Shown here: positions 1 through 46,250 of the stretch, piece after piece
Layout: each line of letters begins with the position of its first letter
Numbering within the stretch: the stretch's first letter is position 1
IMG/VR virus record: IMGVR_UViG_2718218453_000004
Source: a virus
Lineage: Duplodnaviria; Heunggongvirae; Uroviricota; Caudoviricetes
Strand: one strand, 5' to 3'
Length of the DNA: 46,250 bases
Translations under genes and position numbers: made by a program
Notes under the pieces: model-generated
What the model saw: only the letters and a program-made list of their open reading frames with translations
The model's database searches: none
Told to the model about the DNA's origin: nothing

Positions 1-19
1 CTATTTGATAAATATTAAA

Positions 20-1315
20 TTAATTTTTCATTGCTTCGTTATGGGGCATGGTTGGGGCAAACTCGCTTAACTGTGTATTTAACAAAGCTACCTGTGCATT
101 ATTGTTTTCAGACATCCATTTTCCGTATACCTGAAATACCATTTGCGCATCTGCATGGCCCATCTGGTTTGCTATAAATGCCGGGTTAGCACCAGCTGTC
201 AGCGACCAGCAGGCATAAGTATGTCTCGACTGATATGATTTTCGATGGCGGAGTCCGGCACGTTTTATCGCTGCGTCCCACATCTGCCTTATTGAGTCAA
301 CGGTAAAATGGTCACCATAATTTTTTACTCTCGCTGACACTTCAGGTTGAAAAACAAAGGTGCATTTTTGTTTTTCTGTTCTGCCATACTCTCTGAGGTG
401 AACATCAATGATATGCTCTTTGCTCAGTCTCGTTAATGTCATCTGACTCCGGAGAGCGTCGATTGCTGGCTTAATAAGATGAATGACCCGATTGGTTCCC
501 GCCTGTGTTTTTGGTACCGTGAAACGGTCTTTTGCTAAATTTCTCCTGATCATCATTGTTCCATTTTTCAGATCTATGTCCTCCCATCCAAGTGCACACA
601 GCTCACCAGGGCGAACGCCAGTATAAACAGAAACACACCATAAATTTTTTGCTTGCTGATTTCTGCACGCATCGATAAGACGGATAAATTCTTCCCGCGA
701 AAGAGGATCCGGAATGGTTCTTGATTCCTTTAATGGCGAGATCCCCTTAAACGGATTATCTGCCAGGTAACCGTTATCAACACCAAACTGGAACACGGCG
801 TTAAGATTTGTCATGTAATTATTTACAGTTACAGCCGATCTCCCTGGTTGTGTAACAATATAGTTACTTTTGGGGATCTGGTATCCAGTCAGTAACTCTT
901 TACGAACCTCCAGTAATTTTTCTTTATTAATCGATGAGGCAAGATTTTTTTCACCGATTATGCTCAGGATATTTTTGATGACGGCACGGTATGTGTTGAG
1001 TGATGTTTTGGCGACTTCAGTTTCTTTCAGTGCCAGAAATTTTTCAGCCAGTTCTTTTATGGTTAAATCTTGTCGGGCCTCACCAAATTTTTCCAGATTG
1101 CGTGAGGAGGGAAACTGTTTTGCATAGTCGAAAACACCAGTTTTTATTGCGTAACAAACAGAGGAGCGTAGTTCACCTGCAACGCGCCTGTTTTTTGCTG
1201 TGTCAGGAACCCCCAGATTTTCCCTGACTCTTACGCCTTTATAAACAAACCAGATACGTAATTTCCCTCCATGGTTTTCCACGCCTGTCGGATATTTCAT
1301 TTCAACTTCTCTCAT
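20..1315 (-). CDS. int: Tyrosine site-specific integrase
   Basis: 431-aa ORF with a C-terminal catalytic region (HTYACW...GHADAQMVFQVYGKW) typical of lambda-family integrases, at the prophage end next to xis. Confidence 0.9.
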   Translation of the reverse strand: MREVEMKYPTGVENHGGKLRIWFVYKGVRVRENLGVPDTAKNRRVAGELRSSVCYAIKTGVFDYAKQFPSSRNLEKFGEARQDLTIKELAEKFLALKETEVAKTSLNTYRAVIKNILSIIGEKNLASSINKEKLLEVRKELLTGYQIPKSNYIVTQPGRSAVTVNNYMTNLNAVFQFGVDNGYLADNPFKGISPLKESRTIPDPLSREEFIRLIDACRNQQAKNLWCVSVYTGVRPGELCALGWEDIDLKNGTMMIRRNLAKDRFTVPKTQAGTNRVIHLIKPAIDALRSQMTLTRLSKEHIIDVHLREYGRTEKQKCTFVFQPEVSARVKNYGDHFTVDSIRQMWDAAIKRAGLRHRKSYQSRHTYACWSLTAGANPAFIANQMGHADAQMVFQVYGKWMSENNNAQVALLNTQLSEFAPTMPHNEAMKN

Positions 1316-1334
1316 TAGTTAGTGTGGCTTTTAG

Positions 1335-1586
1335 TCAAGTAAGATGACGTCTTGGTCTCGCTGATGCCTGGCGCTCAATCCAGCGATCAATTTCTTCCAG
1401 GTTGTAAAAGCATGGACTGTTATCCCATGGCATACCGTCATGAGCGACATGCTTATATTCCCTTCCTTCCATAAACGATTTTTCCCGGGCCTTTTTTAAC
1501 GTACCTTTTTTTATTCCTTTCAGCGCAATTAACTGCTCTTCGGATACCCATTTGCCGGGAGAGACAATCATGATTACTTCGCTCAT
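1335..1586 (-). CDS. xis: Excisionase-like protein
   Basis: 83-aa basic protein immediately upstream of int on the same strand, the classical xis position. Confidence 0.7.
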   Translation of the reverse strand: MSEVIMIVSPGKWVSEEQLIALKGIKKGTLKKAREKSFMEGREYKHVAHDGMPWDNSPCFYNLEEIDRWIERQASARPRRHLT

Positions 1587-1658
1587 CGATTTCTTTATCT
1601 CTTACATCAGACGAGCGCCGGTTGCAGAATACCAGTCACAACCGGCGACAGTTGAACA

Positions 1659-2492
1659 TTAAGAATCAGCCTGACTCGGGATCAGTTTTTGCCAGATAAC
1701 TGAAACGTATTTTGCCTGGTAACGGGCGTCATCAAGTGCATTATGGCGCTCACCTTCGAATGGAATAGCCGTTCTGGCATCGAAGTCTATGGCTTTCCCC
1801 AGCTCAACGATTGTGCGTACATCGCGATCGTTGTAGTAACGCCACGGGCAGGGGATCCCCTGCCGTTCGTATGAACGGCGCAAAATCGTGTTGTCGAAGT
1901 TGGCTCCATTTCCCCAAACCTGAACAAAAAATTCACCGGAGTTTTCGTCGATAAATTCCCGCAATTGTAACAGTGCATCATCTAACGGGATTTCATCGGT
2001 CATAATGGCAGATTGCGCTTCGCGTGATTGCTTAAGCCACCATTTAATGGTGTCCCGATCAATGACTCCGCCAGCAGTTTCCAGATCGATAGTCTTACTA
2101 AATTCCGGTCCCATATCTCCGGTTTGCGGATCGAAAAATATTGCACCTATTGAGATGATCGGGGCATCAGGATTTTTTCCCATGGTTTCAAGGTCGATCA
2201 TTAGATGGTCACACGCCCTGCTGGTGGATGTGATTTCGTGATGACCGTTCACCTTAATTGGGTGATCTGCCGTCTCGCCAGTTTCATTATCGCTATTGTG
2301 ATGCTGATTGCCGCCAGTGTTCTCCTTGTGTGGATGTTCAGCGCCTTGCATTTCCTCCGGATCATCTTCCTGAACTTCAACCTGATACTCTTCATCGAAT
2401 GTTTCCTGGTATGTTGCGTCGCCCATCACCGCGCCACAATCAGGGCAGTTGCCGCCGCCGGTCTGACCGCAGGCGGTGCAGACTTTTTCCAC
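1659..2492 (-). CDS. 3'-5' exonuclease (DEDDh/DnaQ-like) with N-terminal zinc ribbon
   Basis: N-terminal CxxC...CPDC, acidic linker, then exonuclease motifs DLETMG (Exo I) and HNALDDA (Exo III, DEDDh type). Confidence 0.75.
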
Positions 2493-2503
2493 TTCCTGTT
2501 GCG

Positions 2504-4093
2504 CTACTGGTTCAGGCTGTTTTGTTCCGCTTTTTGGTAGTTCCGTTCCGATTCATGCTGGTTCTGGTTCACAGAATCGCGGGTCTGGATCCCCTTAACC
2601 CATTTCGGATCATTCGGGTCACTAATCCCTTCAACAAATTCACCACGTGATGCAGCAAGCAACTTATCAGCGTCAGGCTGGCTGATATTGGCTGCCTGCA
2701 TAATTTTGTTTACTTCGTCAGCGGTAACTTTTATCGGCTCTGGTTGTTCTGAATCTTCAGCGGTATCTACATTTTGCGGTAAGCCCGTGTATGTGCCATT
2801 TTTTCGGGCAAAATATTCTTCTTTTGTGATTTCAGTGGCGCCAGCAGCCAGTGCCTTATCCAGACCAGAAAGTTTGTTTGCGCGACCGTATTTTTCTCCG
2901 TCCTTATCTGCGAAGAGGAAATAGAACGGCCCCTCACGCTCTACAGATGGTTCAGCTTCCGGCGCGGTTTCATTTTTTGGGATATCAGATACCTCAGTTT
3001 CCACTGCATCAGTTTGTGTTTCTGATGACTGGAGAACATCAACAGTGCCCAGGTCTGTTTCTTCATTCTCAAACACGCCCTTTGTCGTCAGGTATTCGCA
3101 GATATATTTGTTCAGTGCTACGGGATCTTTGTGAATGTCGATCGGACGCTCACGGACAAGGCCAAAAATAGTCTGGCGGTCGTAGCGAAGGGCATCAGGC
3201 TGTTTGCGCATTGATGCCGAGATACGCTTCCAGTCTTCGCGGTCGTTGTCGATAACTTCTTTTTTTGCCCAGCGATGGATGCTGCCGTCAATGTTTCCGG
3301 CATCCACATCACCAGGCCAGAGAGCGTAGGCCAGTTCGTCATCCAGTGTTTTCCATGTCTGCTTGTATTCGCGATGAATGGCAGCAATGACCGGGCTGAT
3401 TTTTCCTGTTGAATTTTCAGTGTACTGTTGATTGGCTCTGGCGCGTGCGAGATCAACAACAGACGTGTATTTTCCGGTTTCCTTGCGTTCACCTTCGCGA
3501 CGTTTTTTCCAGATGCGCATCTCTGCCTGAATTTCGGGCCATTTAGCACCAGGAATACATTTATGCTTAACCCACCCAATGGCGTGCAACTTAAGCTCCG
3601 GATACATGGCGTTAACTTCTGGCATTTTCATCAACGCTTCAACGATATGTCCGTCGAATGTTGCCATGTCTTCCTGCAACAATTCCTGTGCGCTAATAAC
3701 CATATCAACGGTGATGTTTTCACATGTGTCGAACTTAACCATGACAGCGTTCTGTACTTCAGGGGCCAGCTTGTCAAAAGTGACGTTCATCGGATCGGAT
3801 TCAGTCTCATTCGGGACAAAAGAAGCAGACTCCTCATCCCAGCGGTTTTCCTGCATATATTCAGCATCCCATGAATCGAGGGCAGGGCGGGGTATGCCAG
3901 GTTTATCCTCGCAGACAATAAATTTATAAGCGCAGTCCTGAGCAGCCGGATAATGTTCCAGGAATTGCCAGTGAAATTTTGCTCGAGCACGGCGTTCGTC
4001 GCCAGCTTCAATGGCTGTGGCTACAGCCACAGCGCCTTCTTCCCTTGTTGCCAGTTCGTCAGGAATAGCGGCGCAAATAAAGACTTTACTCAT
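2504..4093 (-). CDS. Hypothetical early-left protein, 529 aa, acidic
   Basis: Long ORF in the early-left operon between the exonuclease and ydfD. No catalytic motif recognised by eye. May be the intact counterpart of truncated K-12 ydfE (unverified). Confidence 0.6.
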
Positions 4094-4186
4094 TTTGTTT
4101 TAACCTCATGACAGATTTAAGGATGAACAAATCCCTGCCATTGCTGGCATATAAGAATGAAACCGGATATTTATTACGGAACTGTT

Positions 4187-4378
4187 TTAAAGACCTGCCG
4201 AGATTTCGATATTATCCTGGTTAATAACTTTATCGACCGGGTAACAGTTACCGGGAATTTTCTGTTCGGTTGCTGCAGTCATACACTCCTGCATTGTCCT
4301 GTGAACACTGACTGCAATATCAACTGGCACTCCGGAAACAAGAAAAACTGTCAGAACAAGCGCAAATGCTGAATTCAT
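4187..4378 (-). CDS. ydfD: YdfD-like small lysis/membrane protein (about 63 aa)
   Basis: MNSAFALVLTVFLVSGVPVDIAVSVH... has a hydrophobic N-terminus and sits directly downstream of dicB as in Qin. Start taken at the internal Met of the ORF-track entry. Confidence 0.7.
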   Translation of the reverse strand: MNSAFALVLTVFLVSGVPVDIAVSVHRTMQECMTAATEQKIPGNCYPVDKVINQDNIEISAGL

Positions 4379-4563
4379 TGTGCACATCCTTTTGGCATCA
4401 GACGTAAACGAGCCAGCATTGAAACAATGCATATTTTATTTAATAGCTCCCGTTCTTGTTTTCTCTTGTTAATGGCATCTTCAGTAAATACAGGGTTACT
4501 GATAGTGACACCAATTTCAAAACAACCTTCAGACGTATTAACGTTTGGTAATAACGTTTTCAT
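4375..4563 (-). CDS. dicB: Cell-division inhibitor DicB (62 aa)
   Basis: MKTLLPNVNTSEGCFEIGVTISNPVFTEDAINKRKQERELLNKICIVSMLARLRLMPKGCAQ matches DicB as recalled. Start is the internal Met of the 97-aa ORF-track entry. Confidence 0.85.
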   Translation of the reverse strand: MKTLLPNVNTSEGCFEIGVTISNPVFTEDAINKRKQERELLNKICIVSMLARLRLMPKGCAQ

Positions 4564-4735
4564 TATCGCGTCCTCAACAATAAATTTTGTGATGCAGAGC
4601 CTGGTGCCTCCAGGTGACGTTAACCAGTTAACAATTAACGTCGGATACAGAGAATCCACCCATAACACTGTTTTTGGTTTTAACTGTTCCGCGTGCGCTT
4701 AGCCGCATTCACCGCATAACAAAATTCACTTTAAA

Positions 4736-4790
4736 AACGGCGGCAGAGCAGTCACGGAGTAAAACTGATACCGCCAAACGTCACCAGAAA
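4736..4790 (-). ncRNA. dicF: DicF small regulatory RNA
   Basis: The reverse complement reads TTTCTGGTGACGTTTGGCGGTATCAGTTTTACTCCGTGACTGCTCTGCCGCC followed by GTTTTT, matching the DicF sequence as recalled, in the expected position upstream of dicB. Confidence 0.8.
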
Positions 4791-5049
4791 ATTGATAACA
4801 GAGGGCGTTGCAGCGGGGTTGTCACTTAAGCGTATGGTCAACCTGACAACCCGGTGTCCTCAACGGGGAAGGAATAACCCCGCCATACTTACCGCCGCGC
4901 CATTTTGCGGGTTGCCACAACCGGAAGCGCACGGTCGAATTAAATTTAACGACACCGTACAGTGAGACGAACTTCGCCGTGCGCTTTCGTGTTGTGTGCC
5001 TGCTTTTAACCACGTCAGGCGAGGTGGTATCCTTAAAATCACCACAGTT

Positions 5050-5625
5050 TTAAGGATTCATTAAGCAATGTCGCAACCACCAATAAATCCGCTTAAGAAC
5101 ATGAAAATTGATTACTGGTATAAAGCGCTTACAGTTGTTGGCGCTGCGTTGTTTGTCTTTAATGGAACGTCTTTTTTTGACAGATATCCCGTTGTTCCAT
5201 TGGGTTTTTTGTCCTCCGGCATCTTTTTTATTGGTTTGGGGGAGTGGATTAATCACCCTCTCAAAGTGAGATTTATTGGCCCTGGAGTTTGGACTCGTGG
5301 ATATAATCGTTCTTCGTGCGCACTCGGTATCATCTTCGACATACTTGGTTGTTTCCTGATTGTTACAGGAGTCGTCAAGTTCTTCTGATGTAAAACCGCA
5401 AATGGGGCACGTAACGGGAATTTTGAAAAGCGTTTCTCCGGGTTCCAGAACAAAATTTTCTGCGGTCTGATTTTGCTTCTCATATTTGTGCTCCGCGTCA
5501 TTGTGAGAGCACATTCTTATTCTGAGTGCCTGTTTAAACTCACTGAAGCTGAGAGCTTCTTCGCCTTCGGCAAGGCCTTCGAAGTATTCTTCGTAAGCCT
5601 TTTCCATGATTGTGTCGAAATCCAT
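5050..5625 (-). CDS. Early-left ORF (ydfB/ydfC-like region, CxxC zinc-ribbon motif); extent uncertain
   Basis: Open frame begins at a Met just after the ydfA stop (MDFDTIMEKAYEEYFEGLAEG...PVTCPICGF...). The C-terminal half is K/R/N-rich and overlaps a forward ORF, so the true end may be shorter or the locus frameshifted. Confidence 0.4.
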   Translation of the reverse strand: MDFDTIMEKAYEEYFEGLAEGEEALSFSEFKQALRIRMCSHNDAEHKYEKQNQTAENFVLEPGETLFKIPVTCPICGFTSEELDDSCNNQETTKYVEDDTECARRTIISTSPNSRANKSHFERVINPLPQTNKKDAGGQKTQWNNGISVKKRRSIKDKQRSANNCKRFIPVINFHVLKRIYWWLRHCLMNP

Positions 5626-5626
5626 A

Positions 5627-5782
5627 TCACTCACCTGAGTTTCTTTCCAGCCAGCGACGGGCACCATTTTCGGTTTTAAACGTTTTGCTTTTGGTATACG
5701 TCATCGCGGTGAACGTGCCGTCCTGGTTGGGGAACACGCCACATACCAGAGATTCGCTGTTGCCAAGATCGATAGTATCCAT
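5627..5782 (-). CDS. ydfA: YdfA-like small protein (51 aa)
   Basis: MDTIDLGNSESLVCGVFPNQDGTFTAMTYTKSKTFKTENGARRWLERNSGE, first gene after the repressor in the leftward operon, as ydfA in Qin. Confidence 0.6.
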   Translation of the reverse strand: MDTIDLGNSESLVCGVFPNQDGTFTAMTYTKSKTFKTENGARRWLERNSGE

Positions 5783-7171: not shown

Positions 7172-8129
7172 ACGCCCACTGGTTATAAACACACAGCTTG
7201 CGATGAAGATTGGCTTAAATGAAGCCATTGTGTTGCAGCAGTTGCATTACTGGTTGAGAGATACCAATTCCGGCATGGAATGTGATGGTGTTCGCTGGAT
7301 TTACAACACAACGGAACAATGGTTGGAACAGTTCCCATTCTGGTCAGAGTCAACGTTAAAGCGCGCGTTTGCAAGTCTGAAAACGCTGGGGCTTTTGCGT
7401 TGTGAAAAGCTCAATAAATCAAAGCGCGATATGACCAATTTCTACACGATTAACTATGGGAGCGAGCTTTTAGATGATGGCAAATTGAGCGAATCCATCG
7501 GTTCAAAATGCGCCGCTCCATCAGGTCAAAATGACACGATGGAAGAGGTCAAAATGAAACGCTCCATTGGTTCAAAACGACCCAATGTCATCGGGTCAAA
7601 ATGGCCCGATGATCCTACAGAGAATACAACAGAGAATACAACAGAGATTACTACAGAGAATAAAAACACTTTTCGTCCGGAAGCTTCGCAACCGGACCCG
7701 CAGACGGCTGAACAGGATTTTTTAATCCGGCACCCTGGCGCAGTTGTGTTTAGTGCGAAAAAACGCCAGTGGGGTAGCCAGGAGGATCTGGCGTGTGCGC
7801 AGTGGATATGGGGGCGGATCGTGGGTCTCTACGAACAGGCCGCCAGTGATGATGGCGAGATCATGCGACCAAAAGAGCCTAACTGGACTGTCTGGGCCAA
7901 TGATGTGCGCACAATGCGGATGCTGGATGGCAGAAGCCACAGACAAATTTGTGAAATGTTTGGTCGGGTACAGCGGGATCCATTCTGGGTAAAAAACATC
8001 ATGAGCCCGTCAAAGCTCCGCGAAAAATGGGACGAACTGGTCATCCGCCTGGGGCGTTCACCTGTACAGCGTTGTGTTAATCATATTTCTGAACCGGATA
8101 CAGAAATTCCGCCTGGTTTCAGAGGATAA
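7152..8129 (+). CDS. Phage replication initiator / replisome organiser (O-like), iterons embedded
   Basis: N-terminal winged-helix-like region (LQQLHYWLRDTNSG...LKRAFASLKTLGLL), internal direct DNA repeats, conserved C-terminal region. ATG at 7152 chosen; the ORF is open from 7098. Confidence 0.7.
   Translation: MSLLFAERPLVINTQLAMKIGLNEAIVLQQLHYWLRDTNSGMECDGVRWIYNTTEQWLEQFPFWSESTLKRAFASLKTLGLLRCEKLNKSKRDMTNFYTINYGSELLDDGKLSESIGSKCAAPSGQNDTMEEVKMKRSIGSKRPNVIGSKWPDDPTENTTENTTEITTENKNTFRPEASQPDPQTAEQDFLIRHPGAVVFSAKKRQWGSQEDLACAQWIWGRIVGLYEQAASDDGEIMRPKEPNWTVWANDVRTMRMLDGRSHRQICEMFGRVQRDPFWVKNIMSPSKLREKWDELVIRLGRSPVQRCVNHISEPDTEIPPGFRG
7500..7664 (+). repeat. Iteron-like direct repeats inside the initiator gene (putative ori)
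   Basis: Five GGT(T)CAAAA(T/C)G copies at about 23-bp spacing (7500-7603), then four tandem 12-bp ACAGAGAATACA-like units (7617-7664), then an A-rich stretch. Confidence 0.6.
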
Positions 8130-8789: not shown

Positions 8790-10577
8790 TTAAGTCTGAG
8801 CCTCACTCTCTTGGCCATAAGTGGCTTGCCAGTATCTCGCCGTAGGGTTCATTAGAATGTGCAATACAAGCCACCATGCAAAAATGCAGGGAGGTTGATT
8901 GTAGTAACCGGCAGGCACATATCCGTGAGCTAGTTGATTTCGTAAATCACCATAGATTTTATCTACCAGTAAGGCCTGAAGATTGCCAATTATGTCTACG
9001 CCGAAAGCTTCAATAATCAGTGGATTATCTAGTAATCCCTTGAGTCCATTTCGCTCTTGCGAACCGTCCCCGTGAAGCTGCGATGGTTCCTCACCTTTAA
9101 TTTTAGCCACATATCTCAGACTATTTTCGAGCTGGGGAATCAACACGTGGCATGCCGTCATAAAATCTCCATTGAAACCGCAAACCATACCCTTGATGAA
9201 AAACTCTTCATGCCCAAACGGGATGAAGGGATGATTGATGAACATATCGCGAAAAAACGCCTCCGAGATTGGATATTTCATTGTGATCTCATCTGTAGCA
9301 GGAATAATTTGCCCAGCTACTGCCAACTCATGGTCGATACGCATTCTCGTCATCATTATGGGCCAAATAACTGCCCCATTTGCATCATCAATCCCCAATC
9401 CTGCGGGTATGCGAGCAAGTGTCATTCCCTCATGATCAATATGTGTTGATCCAAACATCCAAGCTATGCTGTTGGCCTTTTGTTCTATTGCTTGAGCCTT
9501 AAGTCTCTCAATGCTGGTTGGCCGACAGACCAGCATCGCAAGTCTGAAAACCATATCAAACAAATCTCTTCCGACTACCCGACTCTTGGCTTGATGGACA
9601 ATCTCACTAATATCTTGAGGGGGAGACTGAAGGATAGACATCTGGTGACGGGATTCGATTTGGTAATCACGCATTTCTTCATACAGCGCAAGACGTTCTA
9701 TTCGGGTTCCTGGAATATTAGCCAGTGCTTCAATAGCATTCTGCATGCAGGCTGCCGAAATCATACCGCCATCTTGGAATTTTGACTCTTCCAGATGTGT
9801 ATCGGCAAGAAGCCGCCAGAATTCAAACTGTGTATCTCTGTCACAGCACCTATTCGCAATCGGGATTGCGGTTTTACAGGCATCGACGGCAAATGAAAAT
9901 AATTTTTGAGCCAGATAGTTTTTTGTCAGAAACAGGAGTTCCTGGGCAATAAAAGATGGCTCACTCACTTTACAGTCGATATCGAGTTGCAGGAGTCGCA
10001 GCGGATAAGGTGAATCGCCTTGTTCTCTGGTACGTTCATACTCTGCTAGTAGATGTGCCGAAAGCTGATCAAATTCATCCCTGAAATCAGTATGCTTTCG
10101 AAAAAAACAACACAGCCTAAGCGCACGCTCTAGGCGTTCTAAAGCACTAACCCACGTCCCTTGCGATGTCATAATAGCTATACTGGACGCATAATAAGCA
10201 CGGACTGCCAGCAAAGGAAAACGGATTCCACCAATTTTACGAACCCAAAGTGTATCAGCAATACGAGCTTGAAGTTCGGGTAGCTCTATCGTCGGGCAAA
10301 ATTGAGAAAGTACCTCCAGCGACAACCCGTTAATGTCATCCGGAATTGCAGATCTACCTTGGCTGCTTTGAAAGCACGGACCAAATGGTACCTGTGGATT
10401 TTCGGGACGAAAGTGAAAACCGCAAATATGGGTTAGCAGTCTTATCTCCGCTCTTCCATCACCTAGGCTAGAAAGATACTTTGTGATATCAAAGCAGGTA
10501 ACTGGCAGCTTACTCTGGATTAAGGGGGATAAATCAATAGTGTTAAGTTCGTCGAGGCTGATATTAATATCGTCCAT
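8790..10577 (-). CDS. Large accessory protein with C-terminal HEPN-like RNase motif (R-x4-H-x-Y); candidate abortive-infection/defence effector
   Basis: 595-aa ORF on the opposite strand to the surrounding rightward operon. RNQLAHGY near the C-terminus (encoded at 8925..8942) fits the HEPN/HepT-type Rx4-6H motif. Visibly AT-richer than flanking genes (by eye, not computed). Occupies the slot where K-12 Qin has relBE beside hok. Confidence 0.6.
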   Translation of the reverse strand: MDDINISLDELNTIDLSPLIQSKLPVTCFDITKYLSSLGDGRAEIRLLTHICGFHFRPENPQVPFGPCFQSSQGRSAIPDDINGLSLEVLSQFCPTIELPELQARIADTLWVRKIGGIRFPLLAVRAYYASSIAIMTSQGTWVSALERLERALRLCCFFRKHTDFRDEFDQLSAHLLAEYERTREQGDSPYPLRLLQLDIDCKVSEPSFIAQELLFLTKNYLAQKLFSFAVDACKTAIPIANRCCDRDTQFEFWRLLADTHLEESKFQDGGMISAACMQNAIEALANIPGTRIERLALYEEMRDYQIESRHQMSILQSPPQDISEIVHQAKSRVVGRDLFDMVFRLAMLVCRPTSIERLKAQAIEQKANSIAWMFGSTHIDHEGMTLARIPAGLGIDDANGAVIWPIMMTRMRIDHELAVAGQIIPATDEITMKYPISEAFFRDMFINHPFIPFGHEEFFIKGMVCGFNGDFMTACHVLIPQLENSLRYVAKIKGEEPSQLHGDGSQERNGLKGLLDNPLIIEAFGVDIIGNLQALLVDKIYGDLRNQLAHGYVPAGYYNQPPCIFAWWLVLHILMNPTARYWQATYGQESEAQT

Positions 10578-11040: not shown

Positions 11041-11251
11041 TTTCACATTGGCGAGGTAACGGTAGTTAAGTAGAATGGCTGCGGGTGCTTGAGGCTATCT
11101 GCCTCGGGCATGAACACCAACGGCAGATAGAGAAAAGCCCCAGTTAACATTACGCGTCCTGCAAGACGCTTAACATTAATCTGAGGCCAATTTCATGCTA
11201 GACATATGTAGGTTAGCCTCTTACGTGCCGAAAGGCAAGGAGAAGCAGGCT

Positions 11252-11407
11252 ATGAAGCAGCAAAAGGCGATGTTAATCGCCCTGATCGTCATCTGTTTAA
11301 CCGTCATAGTGACGGCACTGGTAACGAGGAAAGACCTCTGCGAGGTACGAATCCGAACCGGCCAGACGGAGGTCGCTGTCTTCACAGCTTACGAACCTGA
11401 GGAGTAA
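11252..11407 (+). CDS. hokD: Hok/Gef-family type I toxin (51 aa)
   Basis: MKQQKAMLIALIVICLTVIVTALVTRKDLCEVRIRTGQTEVAVFTAYEPEE matches the Hok family and RelF/HokD as recalled. SD AAGGAG upstream. An in-frame upstream ATG (11195) gives the 70-aa ORF-track entry (mok-like). Confidence 0.9.
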   Translation: MKQQKAMLIALIVICLTVIVTALVTRKDLCEVRIRTGQTEVAVFTAYEPEE

Positions 11408-14168: not shown

Positions 14169-14712
14169 GTGCTTTAAATGGGGCAATAGAGATATTGAAT
14201 CTCATCCCGGGATAAACATTGGCAGTTGAAGGTCCACGCGAACCATTTATCCAGCAAAATTCCACGCGTAATCCTGTGGTAATTTCTTCTGCATCTCGAA
14301 GATTGAGAGCTGAAACGTGAAGCTGGGCATCGATACGCCATCGGATGGGAATATAAGACCTTTGCTGCTTTTGTAGTCAAAGTTTTTGACAATTCCTGTC
14401 ATTTTAGGGGACAGAAAAACTCCTTAATACTGATAACCTGGTGCACCATACACACGTTCCTGGAGAAAACTACTTTTTTGATAGGATTGAAGGTGGCTGG
14501 ATGTCTAAAATAAACATTGCTTCATATGTTCAACTATGAGTTAATGACTGCGTCGGTTTGAAGAACAGACGATATACGAAGTAGTTTACTAAAGCAGTTC
14601 TCATTTCAGGTGTTATTCACTTATTCCTTCTTTGAGTCTCTCCAATTAAGTACGAAGTCGTTTCTGTTATGCAAACCATTTATGCCGAAAGGCTCAAGTT
14701 AAGGAATGTAGA

Positions 14713-14928
14713 ATGTCAAATAAAATGACTGGTTTAGTAAAATGGTTTAACGCTGATAAAGGTTTCGGCTTTATTTCTCCTGTTGATGGTAGTAAAGATG
14801 TGTTTGTGCATTTTTCTGCGATTCAGAATGATAATTATCGAACCTTATTTGAAGGTCAAAAGGTTACCTTCTCTATAGAGAGTGGTGCTAAAGGTCCTGC
14901 AGCAGCAAATGTCATCATTACTGATTAA
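14713..14928 (+). CDS. cspB: Cold-shock protein CspB-like (71 aa)
   Basis: [23 protein letters not shown]...VFVHFSAI carries the cold-shock domain RNP1/RNP2 motifs. Confidence 0.9.
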
Positions 14929-15210
14929 AATTCATCGCTCGTCTGTATACGATAACGAAGAAGGCTGATGCCTGAGTAGAGATACGGACAGAGTAGTGAA
15001 TATTGGATCTCTTTAATAAAAAGTAAGGAGGTCCAATACATGAAACAATGGCTAGCATATTTGGCAAAATCTTAATCAGGAAAAGTATGCTAACCATTGT
15101 GGTGAAGTGCAGGTTTGCTGCATGAATAGTTTCACAGCAGAAGCTAACTGCTGGCATCGCAAAACAAAGTGCGTAAGTGGATGACTCCCACAAAAAGCAC
15201 CACAATCTCA

Positions 15211-17238: not shown

Positions 17239-17600
17239 GGTAATATTAAATCGGAACATTTACATCGCGGAATGTAAAATTTAAATAAAAAGGACTCTTC
17301 CATGAGCCAAAATTCCTGAAATCTTAAGGGTAAGATAAAAGGTCTTAATCAGAATGACACGTTTTATTAATAAATAAAGCTATTCTTTCATTGCTGTGTT
17401 TTTCTTTACAAAAGTAATCCTTGCTATGGGTGGTTAATCATGCGTTAATGGTGTTCTGGTTTGTTACAAATTTATCTGAAGCAGTCATTGTTATAATTTT
17501 ATTATTTGTACCTCTTGAGATTTCCTTGTTGGTTTTTCTCTCTGATATTTTTTTTCGGACCATTCTGCCCAAGGGCTAATTTCTTCAAAAGGTAATAATT

Positions 17601-17813
17601 ATGTCTAACAAAATGACTGGTTTAGTGAAATGGTTTAACCCTGAAAAAGGTTTTGGTTTCATCACGCCGAAAGATGGCAGCAAAGATGTGTTTGTCCATT
17701 TCTCAGCAATTCAGAGCAACGATTTCAAAACATTAACTGAGAATCAGGAAGTTGAATTTGGTATTGAGAACGGACCTAAAGGTCCTGCCGCTGTTCATGT
17801 AGTGGCGCTTTGA
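17601..17813 (+). CDS. cspI: Cold-shock protein CspI-like (70 aa)
   Basis: [45 protein letters not shown]... matches CspI as recalled. Confidence 0.9.
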
Positions 17814-18084
17814 GGTAGACAATATTACAAACCATATTCACTTTAGATGCCCGTGTTGTCATGGTTCCCAGTATAGAACATCATCTTTTGATGTTTCTGA
17901 CATGAATCCTTTCGGGGCAAAATGTATCTTTTGTAAATCAATGATGATTACATTTGATAATATTTCACAATACTTAAATGCCAGCCGTCTGTCGTTGGAT
18001 TTAAAAAAGTGAAAATGAAGGCTCCTTCGGGAGCTTTTTTGCTTGGTATCTATTCGATGGATACTCACATACTACGGTAACATC

Positions 18085-42368: not shown

Positions 42369-42943
42369 TGGCATTCAGAATGAGTGAACAACCACGGACC
42401 ATAAAAATTTATAATCTGCTGGCCGGAACTAATGAATTTATTGGTGAAGGTGACGCATATATTCCGCCTCATACAGGTCTGCCAGCAAACAGTACCGATA
42501 TTGCACCACCAGATATTCCTGCTGGCTTTGTGGCTGTTTTCAACAGTGATAAGGCATCGTGGCATCTCGTTGAAGACCATCGGGGTAAAACGGTTTATGA
42601 CGTAGCGTCAGGGGACGCGTTATTTATTTCTGAACTCGGTCCGTTACCGGAAAATGTTACCTGGTTATCGCCGGAAGGGGAGTTTCAGAAGTGGAACGGC
42701 ACAGCCTGGGTGAAAGATGCAGAAGCAGAAAAACTGTTCCGGATCCGAGAGGCGGAAGAAACAAAAAACAGCCTGATGCAGGTAGCCAGTGAGCATATTG
42801 CGCCACTTCAGGATGCTGTAGATCTGGAAATCGCAACGGAGGAAGAAACCTCATTGCTGGAAGCCTGGAAAAAGTATCGGGTGTTGCTGAACCGTGTTGA
42901 TACGTCAACTGCACAGGATATTGAATGGCCAGCACTGCCGTAG
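42368..42943 (+). CDS. tfa: Tail fibre assembly protein Tfa
   Basis: 191 aa; the ATG overlaps the stf stop; lambda Tfa-like. Confidence 0.85.
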
Positions 42944-43040: not shown

Positions 43041-43631
43041 TTATATGTCAGGTGTCTGAAGTTTTGCTTTGGCTCTTAAAATGGTTTGCCGCGAGGTTTT
43101 GAATTCCCGGGCAATGGCACTTATACTTACACCTGACTTAATTCGTTCGAATACCACCTGTTTCTGTTCTTCATTTAACACAGGTGGTCGACCAAAACGT
43201 TTCCCTGCGCCGCGGGCTCTTACTATCCCGGAATGAGTGCGTTCAAGTAAAAGGTCTCGTTCAAATTCAGCGACTGCTGAAATTACGTGCATCATCATTT
43301 TTCCTGTTGGACTGGTCAGGTCAATGCCCCCCAATGCTAAGCAATGCACTCTGATACCTGTTTCGGTCAGTTGTTCCACTGTTTTCCTGATATCCATTGC
43401 ATTACAACCAAGGCGATCCAGTTTTGTCACAATCAATTGATCACCACATTTCAGGCGAGCAAGCAACCGGTTAAAACCAGGACGCTCACTGGTTGCTGCT
43501 GAGCCGCTAATGTGTTCTTCGATTATTTGCTGAGGTTTGATTTTAAAACCTGCACTTTCGATTTCCCGGCGTTGATTTTCGATGGTCTGATCCAGCGTTG
43601 ATATCCGACAGTAAGCAAAAATTCGAGACAT
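43041..43631 (-). CDS. pin: Serine DNA invertase (Pin/Hin/Gin family)
   Basis: [15 protein letters not shown]... carries the catalytic Ser motif and a C-terminal HTH ([18 protein letters not shown]). Confidence 0.9.
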
Positions 43632-44966: not shown

Positions 44967-46250
44967 ATGGATTTCCAGTTATATTCGCTCGGCGCAGCGT
45001 TGGTGTTTCATGAAATATTTTTTCCTGAATCATCAACGGCAATGGCGTTAATTTTGGCAATGGGAACCTACGGTGCAGGTTATGTGGCGCGTATTGTCGG
45101 AGCATTTATTTTCGGCAAAATGGGCGACAGAATAGGGCGTAAAAAAGTGCTCTTTATTACCATCACCATGATGGGGATCTGTACCACCTTAATTGGTGTG
45201 TTACCGACCTATGCACAGATTGGTGTTTTTGCCCCCATCTTGCTGGTGACGCTGCGTATTATTCAGGGGTTGGGTGCAGGTGCGGAAATTTCCGGTGCCG
45301 GTACGATGCTGGCGGAATATGCACCAAAAGGTAAGCGCGGAATTATCTCCTCATTTGTAGCTATGGGAACTAACTGCGGAACCTTGAGCGCAACGGCAAT
45401 CTGGGCCTTTATGTTCTTCATTCTCAGTAAAGAGGAACTGCTGGCGTGGGGATGGCGTATACCGTTCCTGGCGAGCGTTGTCGTGATGGTCTTTGCTATC
45501 TGGTTACGTATGAATCTGAAAGAAAGCCCGGTCTTTGAGAAGGTTAATGACAGCAACCAACCCACAGCAAAACCTGCACCTGCTGGTAGCATGTTCCAGA
45601 GCAAATCCTTCTGGCTGGCAACAGGGCTGCGTTTTGGTCAGGCGGGTAACTCCGGGTTAATTCAGACTTTCCTTGCAGGCTATTTAGTGCAGACGTTATT
45701 GTTTAACAAAGCAATTCCAACAGATGCATTGATGATTAGTTCGATTCTCGGCTTTATGACCATTCCGTTCCTTGGTTGGTTATCCGATAAAATTGGTCGC
45801 CGGATCCCGTATATTATTATGAATACCTCCGCGATTGTGCTGGCATGGCCAATGCTTTCTATCATTGTAGATAAAAGCTATGCCCCGAGCACCATTATGG
45901 TTGCACTGATTGTGATTCATAACTGTGCGGTGCTGGGATTATTTGCTCTGGAAAACATTACCATGGCAGAAATGTTCGGCTGTAAAAACCGCTTTACCCG
46001 GATGGCTATTTCTAAAGAAATTGGTGGTCTTATCGCTTCCGGTTTTGGTCCTATCCTGGCGGGTATTTTCTGCACCATGACGGAATCCTGGTATCCGATC
46101 GCCATTATGATCATGGCATATTCAGTAATTGGTTTAATCTCTGCGCTGAAAATGCCAGAGGTGAAAGACCGTGATTTAAGTGCGCTGGAAGACGCTGCGG
46201 AAGATCAACCGCGTGTTGTAAGAGCTGCGCAACCTTCCAGAAGTCTGTAA
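44967..46250 (+). CDS. ydfJ: MFS transporter (metabolite:H+ symporter family), host gene at the prophage junction
   Basis: 427 aa with multiple transmembrane segments. N-terminus MDFQLYSLG resembles the conserved (E)WYDF motif region without the usual leading segment. The stop is the last codon of the window. Confidence 0.85.
   Translation: MDFQLYSLGAALVFHEIFFPESSTAMALILAMGTYGAGYVARIVGAFIFGKMGDRIGRKKVLFITITMMGICTTLIGVLPTYAQIGVFAPILLVTLRIIQGLGAGAEISGAGTMLAEYAPKGKRGIISSFVAMGTNCGTLSATAIWAFMFFILSKEELLAWGWRIPFLASVVVMVFAIWLRMNLKESPVFEKVNDSNQPTAKPAPAGSMFQSKSFWLATGLRFGQAGNSGLIQTFLAGYLVQTLLFNKAIPTDALMISSILGFMTIPFLGWLSDKIGRRIPYIIMNTSAIVLAWPMLSIIVDKSYAPSTIMVALIVIHNCAVLGLFALENITMAEMFGCKNRFTRMAISKEIGGLIASGFGPILAGIFCTMTESWYPIAIMIMAYSVIGLISALKMPEVKDRDLSALEDAAEDQPRVVRAAQPSRSL

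Follow-up and report, generated by a model that had tools for sequence, protein, structure and literature searches.

A RecE-like prophage gene with a DEDDh exonuclease domain, very probably split by a recent 37-bp deletion

RecE of the Escherichia coli Rac prophage carries a middle region, a zinc ribbon and an acidic linker ahead of a 5'-3' nuclease of the PD-(D/E)XK type (PF06630/PF12684), and is paired with RecT; its N-terminal domain is reported to enhance linear-linear recombination. RecE is also known as exonuclease VIII. The Qin prophage of strain K-12 carries ydfE (b1577), an IS2-truncated remnant and pseudogene. Stand-alone DEDDh 3'-5' exonucleases of 160-230 amino acids (aa) include T4 DexA, Rv2179c (RNase AS) of M. 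tuberculosis and the E. coli DexA homologue EcD ('HREX'), which is reported to cut 5-hydroxymethylcytosine (5hmC) DNA and to protect against T4 (PMC12153337, 2025). Closest of all are prophage genes annotated as 'exonuclease' or '3'-5' exoribonuclease domain-containing protein' (811-826 aa, family phrog_2082), exemplified by HannyBb XNS40216.1, PhiR42_1 XSB42569.1, the CP-933P 'exodeoxyribonuclease' and ECO26_1771. Here we analyse a member of this last group in a phage stretch of 46,250 nt (IMG/VR record IMGVR_UViG_2718218453_000004), hereafter the window, whose coordinates are used unless stated otherwise. Two open reading frames (ORFs) within 1659..4093 on the minus strand are, as judged by sequence comparison, very probably the halves of one recently inactivated gene, a full-length homologue of K-12 Qin ydfE. 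The locus is the same gene as the 823-aa prophage 'exonuclease', with the same position, domains and catalytic residues, and differs from the intact phrog_2082 members in carrying a 37-bp frameshifting deletion that makes it a pseudogene or split member.

The upstream ORF (2504-4093, minus strand, ATG start) encodes 529 aa and the downstream ORF (1659-2492, minus strand, GTG start at 2490-2492) encodes 277 aa; the TAG of the former and the GTG of the latter are 11 nt apart and in different frames. A preliminary description of this DNA had taken the products for two independent cargo proteins. Both ORFs instead fall on one 823-position profile, phrog_2082, the 529-aa ORF covering positions 1-528 (1253 bits) and the 277-aa ORF positions 548-822 (515 bits). 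Megablast against phage genomes returned HannyBb and PhiR42_1 at 99.5% identity, Tritos at 98.9% and mEp460_ev081 at 92%, and each of these matches was about 37 bases longer than the query region. HannyBb, PhiR42_1 and mEp460_ev081 have a single annotated coding sequence (CDS) here, of 2472 bp and 823 aa, and the phage annotations name it "exonuclease", "exodeoxyribonuclease VIII" or "Exodeoxyribonuclease encoded by cryptic prophage CP-933P". Alignment of the window with HannyBb by MAFFT over 2551 nt showed one 37-bp gap and 11 substitutions, with no secondary disabling mutation in the window allele. RefSeq likewise records a single gene. Over window bases 1-5090 the DNA matches E. coli strain 4012 (NZ_CP103626.1) at 100% identity and strain 190 at 99.99%. 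Both strains have a 2435-bp span, the same length as 1659-4093, annotated as one frameshifted pseudogene, for which the strain 4012 entry reads "3'-5' exonuclease, frameshifted".

Of an imperfect 10-nt direct repeat, AAC[A/G]AAACAG, one copy is left at the deletion junction (2517..2526, minus strand); the repeat appears in the MAFFT alignment and as a 10-nt overlap between BLAST pieces. In intact alleles the 37 missing bp lie between two copies of this repeat, and exact microhomology at the junction is confined to AAACAG (2517-2522). As far as the alignment can tell, the pattern of a 37-bp loss between direct repeats fits replication slippage. Compared with the HannyBb protein, the 529-aa ORF corresponds to intact residues 1-526, with one substitution (N95 for V), followed by the out-of-frame residues L-N-Q and a premature TAG at 2504-2506 produced by the deletion. 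The 277-aa ORF corresponds to intact residues 547-823 in the original frame, and its GTG is an internal valine codon. The zinc ribbon, which had been described as N-terminal, therefore lies inside the intact protein, at residues ~551-565 of 823. The deletion takes about 12 codons out of a linker at residues 500-547. A natural allele of 812 aa lacks 14 aa at this point of the linker yet stays in frame, so the harm comes from the frameshift alone. The locus is, in all likelihood, a recent null or a strong hypomorph. The linker just before the zinc ribbon (intact residues ~527-546) is also an indel hotspot in proteins P0012 and P0042, and separate in-frame deletions, in the acidic linker, are found in 811-aa alleles.

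The distribution of the allele was examined in 5426 complete E. coli genomes. A 47-nt junction query, able to seed only across the deletion junction, was found in 8 of them (7 perfect matches). DNA of the exonuclease domain, scored as a match at ≥80% coverage, is present in 4047 of the 5426, at 8096 places overall and in up to 7 copies per genome, which removes the novelty that the preliminary description had implied. An earlier count of 3861 genomes out of the 5426 was dropped because its query lay in a segment common to recE-type genes and was not specific to the variant. The complete genomes with the junction carry at least five strain names, with sources including Boston urine, Houston blood, soil, a pig farm and humans. 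A variant of the junction with one mismatch (97.9%) occurs in APEC E14033 (O78:H4 avian; NZ_CP126948.1 1999453-1999499) at a different chromosomal position, which suggests independent slippage or transfer of the allele through prophage recombination. Both the family and the allele are already known: the former is abundant, has database names and is represented by Pfam and PHROG families, and the exact allele is flagged as frameshifted by RefSeq. The neighbouring xis gene is intact (83 aa) in the window and in strain 4012. In strain 190 it is annotated as 'frameshifted' owing to a single 1-nt gap relative to window 1335-1586 (strain 190 locus 5505-5755), which marks either a second step of decay or a fault in that genome's assembly.

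To describe the protein that the deletion interrupts, we used an AlphaFold2 model of a 91%-identical intact homologue, P0042, built from a 49-sequence alignment; a second model, of the 529-aa product of the window, agrees with it. Ratios of nonsynonymous to synonymous substitution rates (dN/dS) were computed between the HannyBb and mEp460 alleles. Residues 1-215, 245-344 and 386-436 form confidently predicted folded units, and a helical hairpin (456-499), the zinc ribbon (~550-570) and the exonuclease domain (641-820) are predicted less confidently. Segments 218-237, 345-384, 439-455, 500-547 and 571-636 are predicted to be disordered, and the 37-bp deletion falls in the fourth of these. The dN/dS ranges from 0.04 to 0.19 across the folded units and from 0.64 to 0.86 across three linkers; the low values in the folded units indicate that intact alleles are under purifying selection.

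The N-terminal alpha/beta and helical domain, residues 1-215, spans 3449..4093 on the minus strand and constitutes the YdfE_N region, with a predicted local distance difference test (pLDDT) score of about 95 and a dN/dS of 0.09; it is the part that survives in the K-12 ydfE pseudogene. The helical domain of residues 245-344 (3062..3361, minus strand; defined on the AlphaFold2 model; dN/dS 0.12) is where the protein starts to be homologous to RecE, from residue 278 of the latter. A small beta-rich domain, residues 386-436 (2786..2938, minus strand; pLDDT 92-96; dN/dS 0.04), is flanked by disordered, fast-evolving linkers with dN/dS of 0.64-0.67. The helical hairpin of residues 456-499 (2597..2728, minus strand; pLDDT 63-78) contains a RecE-conserved motif near-identical to RecE 456-485. 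The internal four-cysteine zinc ribbon (2436..2480, minus strand; pLDDT about 75) is common to RecE, being about 80% identical to RecE 518-532 and flanks, and its four cysteines are kept in 10 of 10 aligned alleles, DEDDh-type and PD-(D/E)XK-type alike. The last unit is the DEDDh 3'-5' exonuclease domain (1692..2207, minus strand) of the family that includes Rv2179c/RNase AS and T4 DexA (PF16473, 2.9e-68).

Comparison with YdfE and RecE shows where the scaffold comes from. Residues 1-257 are 99% identical to K-12 Qin YdfE, and residues 262-627 are homologous to K-12 RecE 278-592 (BLASTP 1e-61); at the DNA level, window 2265-3310 encodes a homologue of RecE 278-600 (tblastn 4.9e-53). The 529-aa product, said to be without a recognisable motif, thus consists of 257 aa of YdfE, with the YdfE_N (PF27430) and YdfE_C (PF27432) families in precomputed Pfam assignments, followed by residues 262-526 within the RecE-homologous stretch; that it is highly acidic was correctly noted (isoelectric point 4.8; 97 D+E versus 65 K+R). 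The stretch running from LLAASRGEF across the zinc ribbon and acidic linker shares about 80% identity with RecE. The homology stops at ...ETGE(T/V)ADP, the RecE nuclease boundary, beyond which RecE-type proteins run on into VEDIEPGIYYGISNENYH, the start of their nuclease domain, and the ydfE-type family runs on into the DEDDh domain. Thus, the protein resembles RecE of Rac in its middle region, zinc ribbon, acidic linker and early-left slot, and differs from it in having a DEDDh 3'-5' nuclease in exchange for the PD-(D/E)XK 5'-3' nuclease, in lacking an accompanying recT, and in its first ~260 residues (YdfE_N), which do not align with RecE 1-277. The NCBIfam RecE model PRK09709 scored 139 and 107 bits, below its equivalog cut-off of 1269.

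The statement in the preliminary description that no RecE or RecT homologue is present holds for one part only. Neither RecT nor a RecE-type nuclease was found in the 46-kb window (tblastn E > 0.2 for both: E 8.2 for RecT and E ≥ 0.26 for RecE 588-866, the latter with no PF06630 or PF12684 match either), and xis directly follows the gene; the homologue of RecE 278-600 at 2265-3310 had been missed. The further suggestion that the locus stands in place of a RecET module was sound. The DEDDh nuclease occupies the slot between dicB/ydfD and xis, in which a related prophage (L009) has a RecE-type gene and recT. That prophage, at the Rac/ttcA site, has the order dicB-ydfD-[gene]-recT-lar-DUF1187-xis-int, and its gene encodes one of the 900-aa proteins recovered in a search of 5.8 billion proteins. 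In these the N-terminal 529 aa, at 99-100% identity, are fused to PF12684 (DUF3799, PD-(D/E)XK); in proteins of 811-826 aa the same N-terminus, at 90-98% identity, is fused to PF16473. The scaffold family is small when clustered at 50% (223 clusters, E ≤ 0.001), and of 49 diverse long homologues 23 carried Exonuc_VIII, 12 DUF3799, 6 Rv2179c-like and 1 RecT. We conclude that a DEDDh head has replaced the RecE nuclease and recT on a shared scaffold. Our literature search returned no paper joining Rv2179c with a prophage and none on a DEDDh-headed RecE-like variant, and mentions of ydfE were incidental.

The description of the 277-aa ORF as a zinc ribbon joined to a DnaQ-like exonuclease was accurate as to content. 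Its N-terminal end reads C-x2-C-x8-C-x2-C, and PF16473 (Rv2179c-like) matches it with 2.9e-68 and 229.5 bits against a cut-off of 27, over profile positions 2-177 of 177; PF00929 matches at 4.2e-05. Conservation of the exonuclease motifs, which had been set beforehand as a refuting check, was borne out: the catalytic D-E-D-H-D is kept on alignment, with predicted catalytic residues D100, E102, D200, H250 and D255 (277-aa numbering) aligned to DexA D7, E9, D119, H186 and D191. The DexA catalytic residues are those given in PMC12153337, where E12 is printed and the invariant residue in our alignment is E9. Among PDB sequences the top match is the 227-aa chain of 8KEL; its deposited name is 'Exodeoxyribonuclease', it agrees with T4 DexA at the aligned residues, and it has the S87 and D90 positions that are mutated in 8KEN. 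Foldseek with the intact model returned RNase T, ERI1, Cap18, Orn/REXO2 and RNase AS (Rv2179c). On the strength of these profile and residue matches, the domain is assigned to the DEDDh PF16473 superfamily, a family that takes in both a DNase (T4 DexA) and an RNase (RNase AS).

For a closer comparison with EcD, an EcD-like sequence of 189 aa was retrieved from IMG/VR via a published primer 17-mer; the protein has Ala78, consistent with PMC12153337. The window domain is 38% identical to this protein, whose start corresponds to M98 of the 277-aa ORF, and 33% identical to T4 DexA. DexA W152 is required for cutting 5hmC DNA (PMC12153337); this position is a tryptophan in the EcD-like protein and Tyr220 in the window protein. 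The loop of DexA D169 is shortened or absent in the window protein and gives no reliable alignment, and the tetramer-forming D90 of DexA (Ala in EcD) corresponds to Ala173 by HMMER alignment and to Asp172 by MAFFT. The nuclease fold and the catalytic D-E-D-H-D are the same in DexA, Rv2179c, EcD and the window protein, whereas the first three stand alone and here the domain forms the C-terminus of an 823-aa RecE-like scaffold. The domain was not assigned to the HREX/EcD group, given only 38% identity, a key tryptophan that is not conserved and an architecture other than a stand-alone protein of ~189 aa. Stand-alone 189-aa EcD-like exonucleases (MIDTETLGNG...) were also seen on viral IMG/VR contigs (L013, L018, L028, L029, L031 and L034). 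EcD, presented as a bacterial defence protein in PMC12153337, a paper in which the word prophage is absent, may itself be phage- or prophage-borne.

These features suggest how the intact and the broken gene might behave. The intact protein consists of a YdfE_N/YdfE_C scaffold, RecE-like from about residue 262, followed by the four-cysteine zinc ribbon and an acidic disordered linker, with a DEDDh 3'-5' exonuclease placed exactly where RecE begins its 5'-3' PD-(D/E)XK nuclease. After derepression of the prophage, its RecE-type scaffold may guide the 3'-5' nuclease to DNA ends. Since no annealing partner accompanies it, the intact protein is probably not a two-component recombinase of the Red or RecET type. 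In the lineage of the window, a deletion between the imperfect 10-nt repeats, in a disordered and indel-prone linker and probably by slippage, shifted the reading frame. The first 526 codons now end at the premature TAG, and the last 277, encoding the zinc ribbon, acidic linker and nuclease, have lost their natural translation start. The scaffold alone would probably be made, as a truncated product of 58 kDa, and the nuclease part poorly or not at all.

The preliminary description had also called this region a known hotspot for anti-defence or recombination accessory genes. A defence or anti-defence assignment was rejected, as PADLOC returned only a generic DEDDh model, CRISPR-associated, at 2.4e-06 for the 277-aa ORF and 1.8e-05 for the intact protein. 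It is conceivable, though we consider it unlikely, that the intact family is a non-recombination enzyme directed against incoming phage DNA, as in an HREX-like superinfection defence, or against nucleic acid of a host defence, and that the free fragment still acts like EcD. Nothing specific for a defence role emerged, as the tryptophan for 5hmC recognition is not kept and no defence-system model was matched. More plausible as defence cargo than the exonuclease locus is a 595-aa gene elsewhere in the window (8790-10577, minus strand), which lies in reverse orientation with the replication genes on one side and the nin region on the other. Its product contains DUF7380 and DUF4209 domains and scores 2.9e-102 against PDC-S39, a candidate defence system in PADLOC.

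Several other explanations of the split arrangement were weighed. The first is that each ORF is a functional cargo gene in its own right, one for a zinc-ribbon DEDDh exonuclease and the other for an acidic 529-aa protein unrelated to it, the two forming a novel anti-defence or recombination accessory pair; both ORFs are long and open, and each contains well-folded domains. However, every close relative has one CDS with which the two ORFs are collinear, with the 37 bp as the only difference in gene structure, and the downstream GTG is an internal valine codon lacking usable Shine-Dalgarno (SD) spacing. The split state is also confined to 8 genomes as against 4047 with the domain, RefSeq calls the locus a frameshifted pseudogene, and the PADLOC match is generic. 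We regard the pair as very unlikely here, and as a description of the family it is already refuted. An artefact of sequencing or assembly, in which the real genome would retain the 37 bp, is more improbable still: assembly frameshifts are common, and strain 190 has its frameshifted xis as well, but the same junction recurs in complete genomes under at least five strain names from different sources, together with the 97.9% variant in APEC E14033, and losing 37 bp between direct repeats is what slippage typically produces, unlike a homopolymer error. Two adjacent ORFs in different frames could in principle be joined by programmed ribosomal frameshifting or stop-codon bypass. Such joining is hardly credible for this locus, given that relatives encode the protein in one frame, that the 37-bp deletion fully explains the frame change and that no slippery heptamer is present at the junction.

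A gene that is split and still functional deserves somewhat more attention, although we judge it quite unlikely. The truncated scaffold would be made alongside a nuclease initiated internally or by re-initiation, at the GTG (2492) or at the ATG of M48 (2349-2351), and the free DEDDh domain would be useful by itself. Stand-alone homologues of 189 aa exist, one of which, at 38% identity, has activity and gives protection against T4 according to PMC12153337; the 11 nt between stop and GTG could permit re-initiation; a GGAGG precedes M48; and the window allele has no secondary disabling mutation. The SD spacing is nevertheless poor at all candidate starts. The native start of the 529-aa ORF has an AGG-type SD 9-10 nt upstream, whereas the SD-like AGGAA directly abuts the GTG and the GGAGG is merely 2 nt from M48, both weak start contexts. 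The allele is moreover rare and probably largely clonal, as 7 genomes share an identical 171-bp junction segment at mostly similar chromosome positions, and the missing secondary mutations are equally consistent with a recent event. A recent slippage deletion in a single gene is therefore the explanation that we prefer.

The main value of the locus is one of correction: read raw, a frameshifted pseudogene resembles a pair of new genes, including an "orphan". Behind it stands a wider family in which the RecE N-terminal scaffold carries a nuclease of opposite polarity without RecT; among complete E. coli genomes, about 75% have it in the DicA-controlled early-left operon of a prophage. The intact family is under purifying selection, and no experimentally shown role for it was found in the literature. 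The interchangeable heads on one scaffold, PD-(D/E)XK with RecT or DEDDh alone, amount to a natural experiment on the long-unexplained N-terminal region of RecE.

In the window, the gene belongs to the early-left operon, downstream of DicF, dicB and ydfD, in the order ydfA...DicF-dicB-ydfD-[exonuclease gene]-xis-int, and its early-left position is the same in HannyBb, PhiR42_1, mEp460, ATCC 25922 and K-12 Qin. The dicBF operon of K-12 is repressed by DicA. Upstream of dicB, at 4738-4789 (minus strand), lies the DicF small RNA (Rfam RF00039, 72.5 bits). The '97-aa' dicB of the program-made ORF list is over-extended; DicB proper is its last 62 aa (about 4375-4563) and overlaps ydfD (4187-4378). 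Further upstream, where K-12 Qin has ydfB/ydfC, a 205-aa ORF (5050-5667, minus strand; phrog_35040), also present in HannyBb, matches the 54-position family phrog_2061 with its first 48 aa alone; the remainder of the ORF had no Pfam or PADLOC match.

Other features of the window concern the prophage as a whole, which is a Qin-site lambdoid. A hok/sok-type antitoxin RNA lies at 11083-11257 (plus strand; Rfam sok, 112.7 bits). Two cspA-like thermoregulators of the 5' untranslated region, at 14552-14944 (plus strand, 158.8 bits) and 17455-17840 (plus strand, 112.8 bits), suggest that the prophage, like K-12 Qin, carries genes for cold-shock proteins. At the tail-fibre end, an IS009 RNA (42711-42909, plus strand, 226.7 bits) adjoins a serine DNA invertase (43041-43631, minus strand; Resolvase and HTH_7). 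After the invertase, at the Qin attachment site, comes a host gene for a major facilitator superfamily transporter (44967-46250, plus strand), probably ydfJ.

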